Source: Escherichia coli (GTDB lineage: Bacteria; Pseudomonadota; Gammaproteobacteria; Enterobacterales; Enterobacteriaceae). From it: a DNA stretch of 64,000 nt. The DNA lies in assembly GCF_003334305.1 (NCBI RefSeq), contig NZ_QOWS01000002.1. The stretch is one strand, 5' to 3'. Position numbers and translations under genes: made by a program. Of the stretch, positions 1,991 to 58,873 are shown in pieces. The notes beneath the pieces were generated by a model, which was given only the letters and a program-made list of their open reading frames with translations, was not told the origin of the DNA and did no database searches. Each line of letters begins with the position of its first letter. The first letter of the stretch is position 1.

Positions 1991-2404
1991 TTATTGCTTG
2001 ATCAGGAAATCGTCGAGGGATTTACCTTGCTCATCCATTGCTTTTTTGATTACAGCTGGAGTACGGCCTTGGCCAGTCCAGGTTTTAGTTTCGCCGTTTT
2101 CGTCAACGTAGCTATATTTTGCCGGACGCTGAGCACGTTTAGCTTTGGTGCCAGATTTAACGGCAGCAAGGCTATTCAGCAGTTCGTTCGGGTCAATACC
2201 GTCAGCGATCAGCATTTCGCGATATTGCTGCAGTTTACGAGTGCGCTCTTCAACTTCAGCAGCAGCCGCGCTTTCTTCTTCGCGACGTTCGTTAACAACA
2301 ACTTCTAATTTTTCCAGCATTTCTTCCAGCGTTTCAAGTGTACATTCTCTTGCCTGCGCACGAAGAGTACGGATGTTGTTCAGAATTTTAAGTGCTTCGC
2401 TCAT
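1991..2404 (-). CDS. hns: Nucleoid-associated protein H-NS
   Basis: 137 aa [40 protein letters not shown]...; exact H-NS length and sequence as I recall it. Confidence 0.97.
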
Positions 2405-3008
2405 TGTAGTAATCTCAAACTTATATTGGGGTGGTTTGTTGAGGTAATAATAGAGCCTTAAATTCAGTTGTGCAATAGCCAGGAATGTAAGGAATTCAAA
2501 ATTGTTCTTTATTTTGTGCCGCCAATAAATATCTTTTCATAAAATTAGCCAGAAAAGACGCGGCATATAGCCCTATTTACACCGATGATTTCGCAGCACG
2601 TGAGGTTAAAACTTCCTGATTCATGTCACATTTTATGGGGAGATTATCGTAGGCTGACGACCTTTCAGTCTTCTGTATTAGTTGTGTTTACGAGAATTCC
2701 CTATTAAGCGAATGATGAAAAGTAGAACAGTCGCAATAAGAGCATGGACTTAGTATTGCACTATCTCCTGGAGGTCAACAGAGGGCTATTACTTGCGCAA
2801 CAGGTTAAAGATTGTGAATAGTTACCAGCAGTCATTTACCCGCTTATAACAAGCGAGGCAGTTGTAATGATAGCTCAGAAGGATTATGCAAGGCTTCGTA
2901 AGGGAGAACGCATATACCCACTTCTGTGCATACTGTTGAGCTGAAAAACTGACGAATTATGATAAACTCCAGCCAACTTTATTTCATATCATTGAGGGCC
3001 TGTGGCTG

Positions 3009-8464: not shown

Positions 8465-10096
8465 ATGACCAACATCACCAAGAGAAGTTTAGTAGCAGCT
8501 GGCGTTCTGGCTGCGCTAATGGCAGGGAATGTCGCGCTGGCAGCTGATGTACCCGCAGGCGTCACACTGGCGGAAAAACAAACACTGGTACGTAACAATG
8601 GTTCAGAAGTTCAGTCATTAGATCCGCACAAAATTGAAGGTGTTCCGGAGTCTAATATCAGCCGAGACCTGTTTGAAGGCTTACTGGTCAGCGATCTTGA
8701 CGGTCATCCAGCACCTGGCGTCGCTGAATCCTGGGATAATAAAGACGCGAAAGTCTGGACCTTCCATTTGCGTAAAGATGCGAAATGGTCTGATGGCACG
8801 CCAGTCACAGCACAAGACTTTGTGTATAGCTGGCAACGTTCTGTTGATCCGAACACTGCTTCTCCGTATGCCAGTTATCTGCAATATGGGCATATCGCCG
8901 GTATTGATGAAATTCTTGAAGGGAAAAAACCGATTACCGATCTCGGCGTGAAAGCTATTGATGATCACACATTAGAAGTCACCTTAAGTGAACCCGTTCC
9001 GTACTTCTATAAATTACTTGTTCACCCATCAACTTCACCGGTGCCAAAAGCCGCTATCGAGAAATTCGGCGAAAAATGGACCCAGCCTGGTAATATCGTC
9101 ACCAACGGTGCCTATACCTTAAAAGATTGGGTCGTAAACGAACGAATCGTTCTTGAACGCAGCCCGACCTACTGGAACAACGCGAAAACCGTTATTAACC
9201 AGGTAACCTATTTGCCTATTGCTTCTGAAGTTACCGATGTCAACCGCTACCGTAGTGGTGAAATCGACATGACTTATAACAACATGCCGATCGAATTGTT
9301 CCAGAAGCTGAAAAAAGAGATCCCGGACGAAGTTCACGTTGATCCATACCTGTGCACTTACTATTACGAAATTAACAACCAGAAACCGCCATTCAACGAT
9401 GTGCGTGTGCGTACCGCACTGAAACTAGGTATGGACCGCGATATCATTGTTAATAAAGTGAAAGCGCAGGGCGACATGCCCGCCTATGGTTACACTCCAC
9501 CGTATACTGATGGCGCAAAATTGACTCAGCCGGAATGGTTTGGTTGGAGCCAGGAAAAACGTAACGAAGAAGCGAAAAAACTGCTGGCTGAAGCGGGTTA
9601 TACCGCAGACAAACCGTTGACCATCAACCTGTTGTATAACACCTCCGATCTGCATAAAAAGCTGGCGATTGCTGCCTCTTCATTGTGGAAGAAAAACATT
9701 GGTGTAAACGTCAAACTGGTTAACCAGGAGTGGAAAACGTTCCTCGACACCCGTCACCAGGGTACTTTTGATGTGGCCCGTGCAGGCTGGTGTGCTGACT
9801 ACAACGAACCAACTTCCTTCCTGAACACCATGCTTTCGAACAGCTCGATGAATACCGCGCATTATAAGAGCCCGGCCTTTGACAGCATTATGGCGGAAAC
9901 GCTGAAAGTGACTGACGAGGCGCAGCGCACAGCTCTGTACACTAAAGCAGAACAACAGCTGGATAAGGATTCGGCCATTGTTCCTGTTTATTACTACGTG
10001 AATGCGCGTCTGGTGAAACCGTGGGTTGGTGGCTATACCGGCAAAGATCCGCTGGATAATACCTATACCCGGAATATGTACATTGTGAAGCACTAA
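8465..10096 (+). CDS. oppA: Periplasmic oligopeptide-binding protein OppA (precursor)
   Basis: ORF trimmed to MTNITKRSLVAAGVLAALMAGNVALA signal peptide (543 aa); family 5 substrate-binding protein; first gene of an oppABCDF cluster. Confidence 0.93.
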   Translation: MTNITKRSLVAAGVLAALMAGNVALAADVPAGVTLAEKQTLVRNNGSEVQSLDPHKIEGVPESNISRDLFEGLLVSDLDGHPAPGVAESWDNKDAKVWTFHLRKDAKWSDGTPVTAQDFVYSWQRSVDPNTASPYASYLQYGHIAGIDEILEGKKPITDLGVKAIDDHTLEVTLSEPVPYFYKLLVHPSTSPVPKAAIEKFGEKWTQPGNIVTNGAYTLKDWVVNERIVLERSPTYWNNAKTVINQVTYLPIASEVTDVNRYRSGEIDMTYNNMPIELFQKLKKEIPDEVHVDPYLCTYYYEINNQKPPFNDVRVRTALKLGMDRDIIVNKVKAQGDMPAYGYTPPYTDGAKLTQPEWFGWSQEKRNEEAKKLLAEAGYTADKPLTINLLYNTSDLHKKLAIAASSLWKKNIGVNVKLVNQEWKTFLDTRHQGTFDVARAGWCADYNEPTSFLNTMLSNSSMNTAHYKSPAFDSIMAETLKVTDEAQRTALYTKAEQQLDKDSAIVPVYYYVNARLVKPWVGGYTGKDPLDNTYTRNMYIVKH

Positions 10097-10181: not shown

Positions 10182-11102
10182 ATGTTAAAATTTATTCTAC
10201 GTCGCTGTCTGGAAGCGATTCCGACGCTATTTATTCTTATTACTATTTCGTTCTTTATGATGCGCCTCGCGCCGGGAAGCCCTTTTACCGGCGAACGTAC
10301 TTTACCGCCAGAAGTGATGGCCAATATCGAAGCGAAATATCATCTTAATGATCCGATCATGACACAGTATTTCAGCTACCTGAAACAACTGGCGCACGGT
10401 GATTTCGGTCCATCGTTTAAATATAAAGATTATTCGGTCAATGACTTGGTTGCATCCAGTTTTCCCGTTTCTGCCAAACTGGGAGCCGCAGCATTTTTCC
10501 TTGCGGTAATACTGGGTGTTAGTGCTGGCGTTATTGCCGCATTAAAACAAAACACCAAATGGGACTATACCGTGATGGGGCTGGCAATGACCGGGGTTGT
10601 TATCCCCAGTTTTGTGGTTGCACCATTATTAGTCATGATATTTGCGATCATTTTGCATTGGCTGCCGGGCGGTGGCTGGAATGGTGGGGCGCTTAAATTC
10701 ATGATATTGCCGATGGTGGCGTTGTCACTCGCTTATATCGCCAGTATTGCGCGTATTACCCGTGGCTCTATGATTGAAGTATTACACTCCAATTTTATTC
10801 GTACTGCCCGGGCGAAAGGGTTACCTATGCGGCGGATCATTTTACGTCACGCATTAAAACCTGCTCTGTTACCCGTGCTCTCTTATATGGGCCCCGCATT
10901 TGTCGGCATTATTACCGGTTCTATGGTTATCGAAACCATTTATGGTTTGCCGGGGATTGGACAACTGTTCGTTAATGGCGCATTGAACCGTGACTATTCC
11001 TTAGTGTTAAGCCTGACCATCCTGGTTGGTGCTTTAACCATTTTGTTTAATGCCATTGTCGATGTGCTATATGCGGTTATCGACCCGAAAATCCGTTACT
11101 GA
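10182..11102 (+). CDS. oppB: Oligopeptide ABC transporter permease OppB
   Basis: 306 aa multi-TM permease; length and position match OppB. Confidence 0.94.
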   Translation: MLKFILRRCLEAIPTLFILITISFFMMRLAPGSPFTGERTLPPEVMANIEAKYHLNDPIMTQYFSYLKQLAHGDFGPSFKYKDYSVNDLVASSFPVSAKLGAAAFFLAVILGVSAGVIAALKQNTKWDYTVMGLAMTGVVIPSFVVAPLLVMIFAIILHWLPGGGWNGGALKFMILPMVALSLAYIASIARITRGSMIEVLHSNFIRTARAKGLPMRRIILRHALKPALLPVLSYMGPAFVGIITGSMVIETIYGLPGIGQLFVNGALNRDYSLVLSLTILVGALTILFNAIVDVLYAVIDPKIRY

Positions 11103-54223: not shown

Positions 54224-55351
54224 TTAATATGTCTCACCCAACGCGATTTTTAAGCGATTTATCCAGCCACACAGCCCGCTCCATACCAGCAGATTAATAA
54301 TCTGCGTTGATGATTTTTCGTGTTCGAGTAAAGGGCTGAACTGGGCGGCGCTAAAGCGATCGGGTGCTCGGGTCAGCCATTGTATCGCCTGAACGGTAGC
54401 GTGCTCAACAGAATGACGGTCAGCCCATTGGTTAATTTCATTTTCGCCCTTGCGCAGAAGGGGGCTGATTTTTTTATATTCATTTGATGAATCCATACAG
54501 GCGGCAAAACAAGCAGGACTGCCATTTATCCGCGCGCATAACAACGCCGCAAGCTTATTATCCGGCTGTGTATTAACCCGTGTACTGTTTAACAACCTTT
54601 CGAGAAGGGAAAGTGAAATAGGGTGGAGAGAGAGTGTTTCGGCCAGTTGGCAAAGTTCTGCTGTTGAACTTTTTGTGTACTCTTCAGGTAGTTTTTCCAC
54701 CTCATAGCTGCTTCGCCAGCGTATTGATTCATCAGCAAACAGTGACGCGTCGGCGTAGTTTTGTATTTCCAGACCGGGTAACCAGCGTACCGGGTGCCCG
54801 AGATAAGCCTGAAATGTCGCAATGGTCCGCGCCTGAAAGCCAATAAAACCAATGATTTGGTTAATGATCACACAGTCCCCGGCAGTAAGACCGACGTCAT
54901 TCAGATGCTGGCGCGATCGGTTGTCGATAATAGAAGGCGAGCTAGCCAGTTGGCGGGCATATTGCGTGATTTGTGCCAACCTATGATTGCTTTCCCTGGA
55001 GGAATCAGGCCCGGGGAGCGGCGTAAGTCGCGCCGAATAGTAGTTACATAACCGCTGGACGCCGCAAACCTGAGCAACCGTCAGGGCCGTAGACAAGCGT
55101 TCATAAGCGGTGAAGGTCTGTGAACGGGTCACGGTAAGCTGGTCAGGGAACAATTCCACTGCAAGAACGCGCGCAGGGACCAGCCATGAAAGGAAGGGAG
55201 CCAGCGTTTCTTCATCAAGGATCACGTCGAGCAGAAAGGGATCGCTGACCTTTGCGGCTTCCGGGACCAGAGGCAGAACGTCATACTCCGCAGTACTGGA
55301 TTGCGTTTCATGATACCAGTGGCTTTTGCCGGTGATGTGGCGTTGTTCCAT
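54224..55351 (-). CDS. yciW: CMD-domain putative oxidoreductase YciW
   Basis: ORF trimmed to [19 protein letters not shown]... (375 aa); start choice uncertain. Confidence 0.8.
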
Positions 55352-55495
55352 GGGCGCTCCTTGGTCGTAAAGGAAATCGTTATCCTGACGCAAGGCGGGA
55401 AGGGGAGAAAGACGGATCGGCGATAACAAATATCAGAAAGGTATAACAGAGATAACGGGCGGCAGAACGCCGCCCAATATTTACCAACAGAATGA

Positions 55496-56284
55496 TTATT
55501 TCAATTCGAGTTCGTTCATTGCAGCGATGCTGAAACCGCCGTCAACGTGGACCACTTCACCGGAGATACCGGCAGAGAGATCGGAGCACAGGAATGCCGC
55601 GGAGTTACCCACATCTTCAATAGTAACGGTACGGCGAATCGGGGTAACGGCTTCGCAATGAGCCAGCATTTTGCGGAAGTCTTTGATACCGGAGGCCGCC
55701 AGAGTACGGATCGGACCAGCAGAGATGGCGTTAACACGCACACCTTCCGGACCCATCGCGTTCGCCATATAGCGCACGTTCGCTTCCAGAGACGCTTTTG
55801 CCAGACCCATAACGTTGTAGTTCGGGATAGCGCGCTCAGCGCCAAGGTAGGAAAGGGTCAGCAGGGCAGAACCCGGATTCAGCATGGAGCGGCAAGCTTT
55901 TGCCATTGCAACGAAGCTGTAGGAGCTGATGTCGTGGGCAATTTTGAAGCCTTCACGGGTAACGGCGTTAACATAGTCACCATCCAGCTGATCGCCAGGT
56001 GCAAAACCAATAGAGTGTACGAAACCGTCAAATTTCGGCCAAACTTTCCCCAGTTCAGCGAACATGGTGTCGATGCTGGCATCTTCTGCAACATCGCACT
56101 GCAGAACGATGTCAGAACCCAATTGAGCGGCAAATTCTTCTACGCGGCCTTTCAGTTTGTCGTTCTGGTAGGTGAATGCCAGTTCAGCTCCTTCGCGGTG
56201 CATCGCCTGAGCGATACCGTAGGCGATGGATAGTTTGCTGGCAACACCGGTTACCAGAATGCGCTTACCGGAAAGAAAACCCAT
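55496..56284 (-). CDS. fabI: Enoyl-[acyl-carrier-protein] reductase (NADH)
   Basis: 262 aa [59 protein letters not shown]... Confidence 0.97.
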
Positions 56285-56439
56285 AGCTTTAATCCTTATT
56301 GTTGATGCTTGTTGTGCCTGAAAATCAGGCGATTCGTCGTTTTAGTAAACAGTACGAACAGATAAACGGTTATTATAATCAACCTGGCTGTGAGTAGCTA
56401 TAGTTGCCAGGTCCGACCGGAGCAGGCTGCGGCAGGGTG

Positions 56440-56670
56440 GGCGTTTTTCCCCTCACCCTAACCCTCTCCCCAGAGGGGCGAGGGGACCGTATTGTGCAAA
56501 TATTGTTACCCCAGCAACAAACAGGCTCATACAGCCCCTAACCCTTTCATGGCGATGGCTGGGACGGTTCAGACCTTGCCGAATATTCTCCAGCACCGTC
56601 TCCATGTTTTCACCACAACAGCTATTCGGCTCGGTCTGCCCCCTCGCTCTTTCAGGGAGAGGGTGACCGG
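56440..56670. repeat. Composite intergenic repeat: inverted C-rich/G-rich element pair plus a degenerate direct copy of the ycjD 3' end
   Basis: gaatattctccagcaccgtctcc occurs at about 56581 and again at about 56687 inside ycjD; cctcaccctaaccctctccccagaggggcgagggg (about 56450-56495) resembles the reverse complement of ggtcaccctctccctgaaagagcgaggggg at the ycjD 3' end (about 56633-56670). Confidence 0.6.
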
Positions 56671-57005
56671 CGGTTCAGTTCCTGCAGAATATTCTCCAGC
56701 ACCGTCTCCTCATTACAATCAATCTCGTTATTCCAGAAACGCAGCACGGTCCAGCCCTGCGACTCAAGCCAGCTAGTGCGCCTGGAATCATAGGCAACTG
56801 CTAAATCATGCTGCCCACCATCCAGCTCAACGACTACACGCGCCGAGCAGCAAGCAAAATCGAGAATGTAGCTCCCCACTGGATGTTGACGGCGAAATTT
56901 GAAATCACTAAAACGTCGGCTGCGAAGATATCGCCAGAGCTTTCGTTCCTGCAAAGTGAGATTGCGTCTTAAATCACGCGCATTTGATTTAATTTTATCT
57001 ATCAC
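56652..57005 (-). CDS. ycjD: DUF559 (Vsr-like endonuclease fold) protein YcjD
   Basis: 117 aa ORF with GTG start, MIDKIKSNARDLRRNLTLQERKLWRYLRSRRFSDFKFRRQHPVGSYILDFACC... Confidence 0.88.
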   Translation of the reverse strand: MIDKIKSNARDLRRNLTLQERKLWRYLRSRRFSDFKFRRQHPVGSYILDFACCSARVVVELDGGQHDLAVAYDSRRTSWLESQGWTVLRFWNNEIDCNEETVLENILQELNRRSPSP

Positions 57006-57046
57006 CTCATTCTGACAAGATTTAATCTTTTGTCAGAATGAGGTGA
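57002..57046. repeat. 17 bp perfect inverted repeat (candidate sap operon terminator; left arm covers the ycjD start codon)
   Basis: tcacctcattctgacaa - gatttaatctt - ttgtcagaatgaggtga, between the sapF stop and the ycjD start. Confidence 0.7.
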
Positions 57047-57072
57047 ATAATCTGGAAGGAGGATTCAGAAAA

Positions 57073-57879
57073 TTAGCGATCTTTACGCCACGCATCCGCC
57101 GTCAATGCCTCGCCAAAATGACCGGCAATCAGCCGTTTGGTGAGTTCATGCAGCGGCGATGCCAGCACATCCGCGGTGCTGCCTCGCTCGACAACCTCGC
57201 CCTGATGCATCACCAGCACCTGGTCGCTAATGTGCTTCATCATTCCGATATGCTGGGTAACATAAATATACGAAATGCCCTGTTTTTCCTGTAACTCCAG
57301 CATCAGATTAATCAACTGCGAACGCATCGACATATCCAGTGAAGCGAGGGCTTCATCGGCAATAATGACTTTTGGGCGCAATATCAGCGCGCGCGCCAGA
57401 CCCAGACGCTGTTTTTGTCCGGGTGCCAACATATGCGGATAGTAACTGACGTGATCCGGTAGCAGCCCAACCATACGCATCGTTTCAATAATCTGTTTGC
57501 GACGCTGTTCCGGTTCCAGGTCGGTGTTCAGGCGCAGTGGAAAATCCAGAATTTGCGAGATACGTTGACGGGGATTCAACGAGGTCGAAGGATCCTGAAA
57601 AATCATGCGAATACGCTGACTGCGGAAGGAATAATCGCCAAAATGCAGTGGATGATCGTCAATCAATAACTCGCCGCTGGTAGGCTCTATCATTCCCGCC
57701 AGCATTTTTGCCAGCGTGGATTTACCCGAACCATTCTCGCCAATAATCGCCAGTGTCTGGCCTTCACGTAGCGTAAAGCTCAAGGGTTTTACCGCTTCTA
57801 CGGTCTGACGACGAAACCAGCCGGTCCGGTAGCGGAACGTTTTACTTAAATTACGCACTTCAAGCAGCGTTTCGATCAT
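57073..57879 (-). CDS. sapF: Peptide/putrescine ABC transporter ATP-binding protein SapF
   Basis: 268 aa ORF, Walker A GENGSGKST; last gene of the sap cluster. Confidence 0.94.
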   Translation of the reverse strand: MIETLLEVRNLSKTFRYRTGWFRRQTVEAVKPLSFTLREGQTLAIIGENGSGKSTLAKMLAGMIEPTSGELLIDDHPLHFGDYSFRSQRIRMIFQDPSTSLNPRQRISQILDFPLRLNTDLEPEQRRKQIIETMRMVGLLPDHVSYYPHMLAPGQKQRLGLARALILRPKVIIADEALASLDMSMRSQLINLMLELQEKQGISYIYVTQHIGMMKHISDQVLVMHQGEVVERGSTADVLASPLHELTKRLIAGHFGEALTADAWRKDR

Positions 57880-57880
57880 C

Positions 57881-58873
57881 TCACTCTTTCTCCATGTTCA
57901 GCGGGAAATGACAGGCATAGAGATGATTTTTCGCCCCCGTCAAACGTGGCGTCACAATGCATTCTCGTTGTGCATACGGGCAACGTGGCCCCAGACGACA
58001 ACCAATCGGTAACTGTTCCAGCAGTGGGATAGCGCCGGGCAGCGTATTGAGGCGACTTTTATGCGGCATCGCGCTGCCGAAGTCTGGTATCGCGCGGATC
58101 AGCGCCTGGGTATAAGGATGATGTGGCATCGTCACCAACTCCTTACTCGGCGCGGTTTCCACTGTTTGACCGCAGTAAAGCACGTTAATTTTATCCGCCC
58201 ATTGGCTAAGCATTTGTAAGTCATGGCTGATAAGCAAAATAGTGGTATTGCTGTTTTGGTTGAGACGCGTCAGCAGGCGAAAGATTTGCGCCTGGGTTGT
58301 TGGCTCCATTGAGTTGGTCGGTTCGTCAGCAATCAGCAGACGCGGTTGATTCGCCAGTGCAATGGCTATCATCACTTTCTGACATTCACCTTCGGTCAAC
58401 TCATAGGGAAAACTGCGCATCGCATCTTTGTGATCTTTAATCCCCACGCGGTGCAGCAGTTCAATGGCACGGCGTTTGCGCCAGCCAAAACGCTGCCACC
58501 AACGGCCTTTATAGGTCCAGGCTGGGATGTTTTGCATCAACTGGCGACCCACACGTTCTGAAGGGTCAAGACACGACTGCGGTTCCTGGAAAATCATCGA
58601 CACGTTATGGCCAACCAGTTTGCGCCGTTCGCGTGCGGAGAGACGCAGCAAATCGATATCATCAAAACGCATACGGTCAGCAGTAACACGCCAGTTATCT
58701 TTATTCACCCCACAAATCGCTTTCGCAATCAAACTCTTGCCGGAACCGGATTCACCAACAAGACCGCGGATTTCACCTTCGGTTAAGGTCATACTTACCC
58801 GGTCGACGGCTTTAACCCACTCATCACCGGTTTTAAATTCAATGGTCAGGTTACGAATATCGAGTAATGGCAT
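57881..58873 (-). CDS. sapD: ABC transporter ATP-binding protein SapD
   Basis: 330 aa ORF, Walker A GESGSGKS. Confidence 0.94.

Follow-up and report, generated by a model that had tools for sequence, protein, structure and literature searches.

BoxC, also called PIT, is a repeat which has reportedly been described by Bergler in 1992, by Bachellier in 1999 and by Hoyne and Maher between 2000 and 2002. Holder et al. (2015; PMC4666352) treated TMECO, the 1990s BoxC repeat and Hoyne and Maher's PIT elements as one and the same, and the motif has also been published as a hairpin/quadruplex switch (HPGQ; Kaplan 2016, PMC5100583) and as a palindromic repeat of Enterobacter 638 (PMC2869309). Type A and type B variants, inverted A+B pairs and locally unstable surrounding DNA are common to these accounts and to the locus described here. 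According to Holder et al. BoxC is always intergenic and has no link to mobile elements. The reference given there for BoxC is Bergler et al. 1992, a study of envM (= fabI), so the sapF-fabI locus is the place where the repeat was first named. The subject of this analysis is that locus in a 64,000-nucleotide stretch of Escherichia coli DNA (hereafter the window; contig NZ_QOWS01000002.1 of assembly GCF_003334305.1), and in particular the spacer between fabI and ycjD, a gene for a small DUF559 protein.

A close described parallel for a repeat with a resident gene is provided by the REP/REPIN-RAYT systems, in which a chromosomal and usually single gene lies between inverted copies of a repeat that is also dispersed as singlets and doublets. 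The gene is syntenic within families and not between them, and is rare on plasmids and phages. These traits recur in the arrangement reported below, the two-sided flanking in most of the non-enterobacterial loci. At the protein level, Vsr, I-Bth0305I (PDB 3R3P) and DUF559 have been placed in the same PD-(D/E)XK clade (PMC3424549), and I-Bth0305I shows that a Vsr-like fold can drive selfish gene mobility.

The fabI-ycjD spacer consists of two layers: three BoxC copies, and an old tandem duplication of two units of ~105 nt. Together with a BoxC-ended architecture which characterizes the small DUF559 nuclease genes as a family, and with the origins proposed below for the duplication and its exact repeat, we consider this account of the locus to be very probably correct.

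The first copy, BoxC-1, has its strict TMECO core at 56450-56484 with the G-rich strand being the minus strand. This core fits the published BoxC/TMECO consensus CCCTCNCCC-N3-6-GGGNGAGGG-N3-GGGNGAGGG and is identical in sequence to TMECO no. 9, located at 1,351,204-1,351,239 in MG1655 (Table 1 of Holder et al. 2015, PMC4666352). In the sense of ycjD the copy reads as hairpin, TTA and GGGTGAGGG, and its orientation is opposite to that of BoxC-2 and BoxC-3. The C-rich/G-rich element which the initial annotation had seen in inverted orientation is accounted for by this opposition, the arms (56461-56485 and 56640-56664) being 25 nt long and 80% complementary. BoxC-2, which had not been singled out in that annotation, is a third copy, too degenerate to fit the consensus and no longer able to fold; it is more complete in the ST69-type allele (L004). 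BoxC-3 comprises ycjD codons 114-117 and the stop codon. Since the stop codon sits in its loop, the last residues of YcjD (RSPSP) are encoded by the repeat, as had been suspected, and at this copy the description of BoxC as always intergenic does not hold. The BoxC-3 of the window fails the strict consensus owing to a 12-nt deletion that takes in the third block: in an alignment of four alleles the K-12 type has lost CTCACCCCAACC from within BoxC-3, and with it the third block and four codons, shortening the protein tail from SPSPQPSP to SPSP before the stop. In alleles L003 and L004 a complete TMECO, CCCTCGCCCTTTCAGGGAGAGGGTTGGGGTGAGGG, stands at the ycjD stop and ycjD encodes 120-121 amino acids.

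The supposition that this might be a known E. coli interspersed repeat family was correct. A query containing BoxC-1 was compared with 5,419 complete E. coli genomes and found a median of 16 and a maximum of 28 places per genome; near-identical intergenic copies lie in aaeR-tldD, hybG-hypA and tusA-zntA. Within the 64-kb window itself a sensitive self-BLAST of the spacer revealed no further copies.

The second layer was first noticed as a 23-nt exact duplicate, about 100 bp apart, at the 3' end of ycjD and downstream of it. This 23-mer (GAATATTCTCCAGCACCGTCTCC) occurs exactly twice in the window with a spacing of 106, and no such pair arose in 100 shuffles. Ungapped extension gives 39 nt at 90% identity with the same spacing, while a gapped local alignment pairs the whole of 56500-56603 with 56604-56709, head to tail, with 78 of 102 positions (76%) identical; its score of 90 compares with 21 +/- 4 (maximum 39) for 500 shuffles. 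What had been taken for a decayed second version of the end of ycjD is therefore a complete two-unit duplication rather than a patch of 23-40 nt. In the sense of ycjD each unit contains the last 13 codons of the gene, a BoxC copy and ~35 nt of the sequence that follows on the 3' side. Every ycjD-bearing allele examined (four were aligned) has the duplication, which is therefore older than the divergence of the alleles, which reaches 13%.

The downstream ycjD-tail fragment might instead be what is left of another DUF559-BoxC element, which inserted independently beside the resident one and has since lost most of its gene. Some genomes do carry several such modules (four metagenome-assembled genomes (MAGs) contributed two loci each), arrays of BoxC ends are common, and the enterobacterial order of gene, right end, spacer and left end could be derived from a tandem dimer of whole elements. 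Against this, the units abut exactly at 56603/56604 with no unique DNA between them, which is what a tandem duplication should show, and the similarity runs on through ~35 nt of flank that is not BoxC; the two units of the divergent MFDS allele are identical over the initial 23 nt of this flank. No trace of an upstream-type end or of further gene sequence was seen between the units. We therefore regard a second insertion as unlikely and retain a tandem duplication of the gene end.

The exact 23-nt identity of the two units is confined to the K-12-type allele, in which gene and remnant share GGAGACGGTGCTGGAGAATATTC. This stretch includes two bases (the A of GAGACGG and the A of GAATATT) which are absent from the genes of the other alleles and present in their remnants. 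The MFDS allele has a different exact stretch of 21 nt, ATTCTGCAGGAACTGAGCCGC, common to both its units. Such allele-specific patches of identity look like the signature of repeated short gene conversion acting on an older duplication, and the exact 23-mer would have arisen by conversion between the two units. The repeats do still recombine, given that E. coli 21AR0133 (L096) has lost exactly 106 bp between the 23-nt repeats, equivalent to 56593-56698 of the window. This joins ycjD to the remnant tail, and the gene is annotated in RefSeq as a pseudogene or incomplete. The footprint of a small duplication proposed from the sequence is thus evident both in the head-to-tail units and in this one-unit loss. 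A DUF559 protein of Shigella dysenteriae (P0018, 158 amino acids) departs from the frame of YcjD past WLESQGWT, its remaining sequence (...METVLENIRQGLNHPSHRHKRV...) being read from the downstream remnant and BoxC-1; the change of frame indicates a frameshift or deletion, that is another rearrangement, in that S. dysenteriae lineage.

Head-to-tail units, allele-specific exact patches and loss of one unit by recombination are all properties of an ordinary short tandem duplication under concerted evolution. The difference is that this one begins at a structure-forming repeat which ends a nuclease gene, and that equivalent arrays are found elsewhere: tandem arrays starting exactly at the 3' BoxC of a DUF559 gene recur in five other genera (Table 1), and the E. 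coli pair of 2 x 105 nt is a small and old instance of this pattern. TMECO loci were found to be far more variable between strains than control spacers, for which slippage or breakage at the structure was proposed (Holder et al. 2015, PMC4666352). On these grounds we take slippage or unequal exchange at BoxC, as a structure-forming sequence, to be the likely origin of the E. coli duplication.

The association of BoxC with this type of gene extends far beyond E. coli. In a survey limited to one genome per species 583 relatives were collected, and 80 loci were kept from the Beta-, Gamma-, Alpha- and Deltaproteobacteria, Melainabacteria, Elusimicrobia, Chloroflexi, cyanobacteria and one planctomycete. 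These were searched from -40 to +150 nt relative to the end of the domain for the hairpin core (CCCTCNCCC-loop-GGGNGAGGG, with up to two substitutions). At 68 of the 80 loci the core lies at the end of the DUF559 domain, with a median offset of +4; the expectation per search interval, calculated from 1.16 Mb of flanking DNA, is 0.02. The third block (C-block) precedes the 3' core on the sense strand in 55 of these 68. A core is also found within 200 nt upstream of the gene at 56 of the 80 loci, followed in 42 of them by the G-block. Arm variants covary between one end and the other, a result reached by 0 of 2000 permutations. At the gene-bearing loci the density of cores is one per 9.7 kb. The TMECO-rich Enterobacter, Azospirillum, Micavibrio, Methylococcus and Neisseria yield the gene as well; E. 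asburiae, with 143 TMECOs, and Variovorax are copy-rich hosts. In N. gonorrhoeae the two TMECOs reported by Holder et al. were not found flanking the DUF559 gene, and nothing there fits the strict consensus; its flanks hold degenerate BoxC-like copies and the 281-nt array only.

The BoxC-ended gene is, then, the architecture of small YcjD-type DUF559 nuclease genes in many phyla. The question had been raised of whether this element also terminates other DUF559 genes, and it does. The view of the ycjD end as repeat-encoded stands, while the implication that it was a local accident in E. coli does not: a BoxC tail is ancestral to the YcjD gene family. We accordingly consider a lineage-specific event, in which an ordinary E. 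coli gene received a BoxC insertion at its 3' end and so acquired a new C-terminus, to be very unlikely. BoxC is indeed interspersed and the K-12 tail (RSPSP) is unlike that of the other alleles, but the same motif occupies the same place in about 12 enterobacterial genera and many other phyla, and the K-12 difference is the 12-nt deletion within BoxC.

Of 21 aligned YcjD homologues 15, which come from about a dozen enterobacterial genera and have 56-67% identity, are 120 amino acids long and end in PSPRPSP. The tail codons CCC TCA CCC CGN CCC TCT CCC, followed by a stop codon in the hairpin loop, constitute the C-rich strand of a type-B BoxC, and the only variable tail codon is the one in the BoxC loop. 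Synonymous sites in the body of ycjD are saturated between genera (pS 0.71-0.86, pN 0.15-0.23; Nei-Gojobori), and in the wider relatives the stop codon may stand before, within or after the BoxC motif. Since the stop position shifts, and since the tail codons are fixed despite saturated synonymous sites, the constraint falls on the nucleic acid and not on the peptide. The enterobacterial genes have the 3' BoxC only, which is followed by an inverted type-A copy. They are not syntenic, being located between sapF and fabI in E. coli, between hemW and yggM in Enterobacter and its relatives, and between cysP and yfeX in Klebsiella quasipneumoniae. With regard to the Enterobacter insertion the E. 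coli strain compared has a different gene after hemW, and offers no clean empty site.

Several observations were made on individual contigs. Three Logan short-read contigs carrying Enterobacter and Klebsiella homologues (L011, L012 and L015) end 5-53 nt past the stop codon, as expected for assembly breakage at BoxC. In an Enterobacter sp. MAG (L021, 10320-10360) the type-B copy of the tail and the inverted type-A copy have merged to leave one BoxC, with loss of the spacer and of the first C-block, and ...LLPSP forms the end of the protein. In a Micavibrio MAG contig (L045, ~10005-10030) the BoxC that ends the DUF559 gene is interrupted by N characters, so that the assembly probably has a gap at this repeat.

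The association was also found in the reverse direction, using the repeat without any information on proteins. Metagenome contigs were scanned for GAGAGGG-N2-5-GGGNGAGGG followed after 340-370 nt by CCCTCNCCC, and at least 120 loci were recovered. Among the matches listed, 66 of 120 encode a YcjD-like protein (E < 1e-5, median 126 bits); where the ends are symmetric, that is matching on both strands, 44 of 48 of the listed matches encode a YcjD-type nuclease. The other loci have the appearance of BoxC arrays or of ends paired by chance where the DNA is GC-rich. Chance pairs do not weaken the result because a hundred or more had been estimated beforehand. The modules are uniform. The 5' end passes from flanking DNA into CCCTCTCCC-loop-GGGAGAGGG-N2-4-GGGTGAGGG and after 10-25 nt reaches the ATG; at the 3' end the DUF559 sequence is followed by CCCTCACCC-N2-4-CCCTCTCCC-loop-GGGAGAGGG and then by flanking DNA. 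The module therefore consists of terminal inverted repeats of ~35 nt around one open reading frame (ORF), the element measuring ~450-480 bp.

Versions without the gene exist as well, with ends some 18-49 nt apart. The K-12 pairs TMECO 1/2, 7/8, 10/11 and 12/13 possess both module ends, 16-27 nt apart, and similar doublets lacking the gene occur among the environmental loci, in which arrays of BoxC ends are common. The pair TMECO 1/2 between hrpB and mrcB (164,547-164,631 in K-12) is polymorphic as a discrete unit, either present or absent: it is missing from ~1,890 E. coli genomes, which are ~105 nt shorter and have 8 unrelated nt in its place, and in another strain it has collapsed to a single hairpin.

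It is possible, and we propose it tentatively, that BoxC supplies both the inverted repeats at the termini and the scattered satellites of a phylum-spanning element of ~450 bp, whose sole gene encodes a YcjD-type nuclease that would cut BoxC. The singlets and gene-less doublets would then be satellites of the DUF559 module, as in the pairing of insertion sequences (IS) with miniature inverted-repeat transposable elements (MITEs) or of RAYT with REPIN. By recognizing and cutting BoxC structures the nuclease might spread, maintain or destabilize the repeat. Gene and repeat are physically associated; it is by analogy with these other systems that an enzymatic link between them is suggested.

The analogy with REPIN-RAYT has its bounds. 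YcjD, at 110-120 amino acids, is of the Vsr-like PD-(D/E)XK type rather than a HUH (Y1) tyrosine transposase, and may act as such a system does without belonging to it; BoxC is a three-block triplex/hairpin motif; and the partnership of YcjD with BoxC comes from sequence comparison. The two-sided flanking typical of REPIN-RAYT is seen in 49 of 66 non-enterobacterial loci and in 44 of the 48 symmetric metagenomic loci, while the window and the other enterobacteria have the repeat on the 3' side only. With IS/MITE pairs the module shares inverted ends bounding one ORF, versions lacking the gene and the hrpB-mrcB polymorphism; it differs in that no target-site duplication was seen, that the protein is far too small for a known transposase and that the ycjD-type gene is a long-term resident under purifying selection. 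In comparison with the published accounts of BoxC, PIT, TMECO and HPGQ, which give no partner gene, here the family brackets a DUF559 gene across phyla. An analogy with integron cassettes and attC sites (a promoterless ORF with a 3' palindrome) was entertained and dropped, as there is neither a GTTRRRY core nor an integron context.

YcjD belongs to the NCBIfam equivalog NF007294 (268 bits against a cut-off of 218) and all YcjD homologues have a precomputed match to PF04480 (DUF559). It matches PDB 3HRL, an unpublished structure, with E = 1e-27. Residues D49, E60, D62 and H66 are invariant among 21 homologues, and hhalign pairs YcjD with Vsr (E = 1e-4, for a Vsr sequence entered by hand), placing D49 opposite the catalytic D51. 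The match to I-Bth0305I is marginal (E = 0.38). YcjD is accordingly predicted to be a Vsr-like PD-(D/E)XK nuclease, resembling Vsr and I-Bth0305I in fold and in the position of the catalytic Asp; it differs from Vsr in that the window has no adjacent cytosine methyltransferase, and from I-Bth0305I in that ycjD has no intron or intein context. With a dN/dS of 0.19 relative to the MFDS allele, the gene is under purifying selection. YcjD-type genes were found in 34 of 72,556 plasmid records, mostly chromids or mislabelled chromosomes, and in 2 of 50,697 phage records. PADLOC gave no defence-system match for ycjD. The sole functional datum that we found for the DUF559 family concerns a Caulobacter protein which brings about DNA damage once a solitary cytosine methylase has been removed.

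A number of points weigh against the account given here. The hairpin energies at the BoxC copies of the spacer are unremarkable for the base composition (z ~ -1.7), and Tandem Repeats Finder, run on this region of the window, did not call the E. coli duplication, which it misses because there are only two copies, 76% identical. Four alleles cannot give the direction of gene conversion. The E. coli ycjD has no upstream BoxC, and its start context is weak (GTG/ATA). The number of BoxC copies does not obviously track ycjD within the E. coli phylogroups: 12-13 places are found in ST69-type strains, which have ycjD, and 12 in O157 strains, which do not, the signal within E. coli being confounded. 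No target-site duplication was detected at 26 metagenomic elements or in the filled and empty versions of the K-12 hrpB-mrcB site. Most BoxC loci are orthologous between strains (Holder et al., PMC4666352), and so there is no sign of current BoxC mobility. Lastly, work which that paper cites reportedly found neither promoter nor terminator activity in PIT elements.

Turning to the surroundings, the sapF-ycjD-fabI region is 99.5-100% identical to that of E. coli K-12 and B strains. Among 5,426 E. coli genomes the fabI-sapF slot is occupied in ~3,350 by the ycjD haplotype with its BoxC composite, and in ~2,050 by an 8.4-kb efflux island, eefRABCD, instead of ycjD. The island encodes a TetR regulator, a resistance-nodulation-division (RND) adaptor, an RND pump, an outer-membrane factor and a major facilitator superfamily (MFS) transporter, and is bounded by the sapF terminator hairpin and ~56408; in the O157:H7 strain examined its RND permease is frameshifted. 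This ycjD/eef polymorphism has already been published, as has the fact that ycjD is 12 nt longer in ST69 and ST182 (PMC12817139). The perfect hairpin between sapF and ycjD is probably the sapF terminator. Its stem is conserved in the eefRABCD haplotype and its loop is completely different there. An Rfam search of 55000-58000 gave only sub-threshold, spurious miRNA models on this hairpin. At the start of ycjD (57003-57011) the K-12 type has GTG followed by ATA where the other alleles have an ATG (MDKIK...), and a GAGG upstream of the ATG position is spaced by only ~2 nt; translation initiation looks weak and differs between alleles. A scan for promoters and terminators returned weak pattern matches only. 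One of these, at 56523-56537 on the minus strand, is a terminator-like hairpin with a stretch rich in T (GGGCTGTATGAGCCT GTTTGTTGCT). It belongs to the flank of unit 1, has a degraded counterpart in unit 2, and may once have terminated ycjD.

Table 1. Positions of the features discussed; numbers refer to the window unless a contig is named.
Feature	Position	Strand	Source	Remarks and basis
BoxC-1	56445-56498	minus	window	full-length type A, one stem mismatch; consensus match
Tandem unit 1	56500-56603	minus	window	decayed distal copy; local alignment
Unit 1, flank copy	56500-56534		window	
Unit 1, BoxC-2	~56535-56563		window	degenerate
Unit 1, ycjD remnant	56564-56603		window	13 codons
Tandem unit 2	56604-56709	minus	window	copy in use; local alignment, allele comparison
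Unit 2, flank copy	56604-56639		window	
Unit 2, BoxC-3	56640-56666		window	
Unit 2, ycjD codons 99-117	stop 56652-56654		window	
23-nt exact repeat, distal copy	56581-56603		window	
23-nt exact repeat, proximal copy	56687-56709		window	inside ycjD, codons ETVLENI
fabI	55496-56284	minus	window	
ycjD	56652-57005	minus	window	117-aa DUF559 protein, predicted Vsr-like PD-(D/E)XK nuclease fold; ORF list
sapF	57073-57879	minus	window	
ycjD-haplotype-specific segment	56408-57001		window	genome comparison and PMC12817139
Perfect 17-bp hairpin between sapF and ycjD	57002-57046		window	ycjD start codon in hairpin base; sequence
Array at DUF559 3' BoxC	10352-10556		K. quasipneumoniae, L013	66 nt x3.1
Array at DUF559 3' BoxC	10338-10825		Pseudocitrobacter faecalis, L024	74 nt x6.6
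Array at DUF559 3' BoxC	10341-10991		Serratia oryzae, L040	105 nt x6.2
Array at DUF559 3' BoxC	10332-11076		[Erwinia] mediterraneensis, L088	103 nt x7.2
Array at DUF559 3' BoxC	~1996-2690		N. gonorrhoeae, L103	~281-nt units

The duplicated segment could also be functional in itself, for example by encoding a small RNA or a 50-codon ORF (56453-56605, METVLENIRQGL...) or by regulating fabI. The ORF does begin with ATG, the segment is situated 160-320 nt upstream of fabI, and public data, as cited in PMC12817139, report transcription around ycjD. Its frame is not conserved, however, there being a 1-nt insertion in the ST69-type allele and another start context in MB64 and MFDS; a whole unit has been lost in one strain, no Rfam family was matched, and ~2,050 genomes keep fabI without any of the segment. 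Such a function is in our estimation most improbable. Finally, the idea that the repeat arises from mere coincidence in DNA rich in C and G, which has the biased base composition alone in its favour, deserves practically no credence, being contradicted by the shuffles described above and by the same structure in all alleles.

Locally, the feature is a known repeat combined with an ordinary, decayed duplication, and the published record already includes the repeat, the type copy found here and the polymorphism between ycjD and eef. The two-unit duplication with its conversion, and the tail of YcjD as a BoxC, are undescribed in the literature that we searched, which lies mostly outside the subscription journals. 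The bracketing of DUF559 genes by BoxC across phyla is apparently new: no paper on DUF559, or on BoxC, PIT, TMECO or HPGQ, that we found makes the connection, in a search mostly confined to literature outside the subscription journals.

At the level of the locus these results name the repeat, explain the 23-nt identity and account for a ycjD of 117, 120 or 121 codons among strains. They also have practical consequences, as BoxC repeats break short-read assemblies and place read-through artefacts (PLPQAGEG..., GEGE...) on the tails of annotated DUF559 proteins. On at least five occasions BoxC/PIT/TMECO has been found anew, in the guise of a hairpin, triplex or quadruplex motif linked with local genome instability, without an account of its origin or spread. 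This orphan repeat family now gains a candidate partner enzyme, and DUF559 is a large family with a nuclease fold and almost no assigned function. The module would offer a second, mechanistically different arrangement of a repeat with a resident nuclease besides REP/RAYT, and the two-way association merges the questions surrounding both families into a single one, namely, does YcjD cut or bind BoxC?

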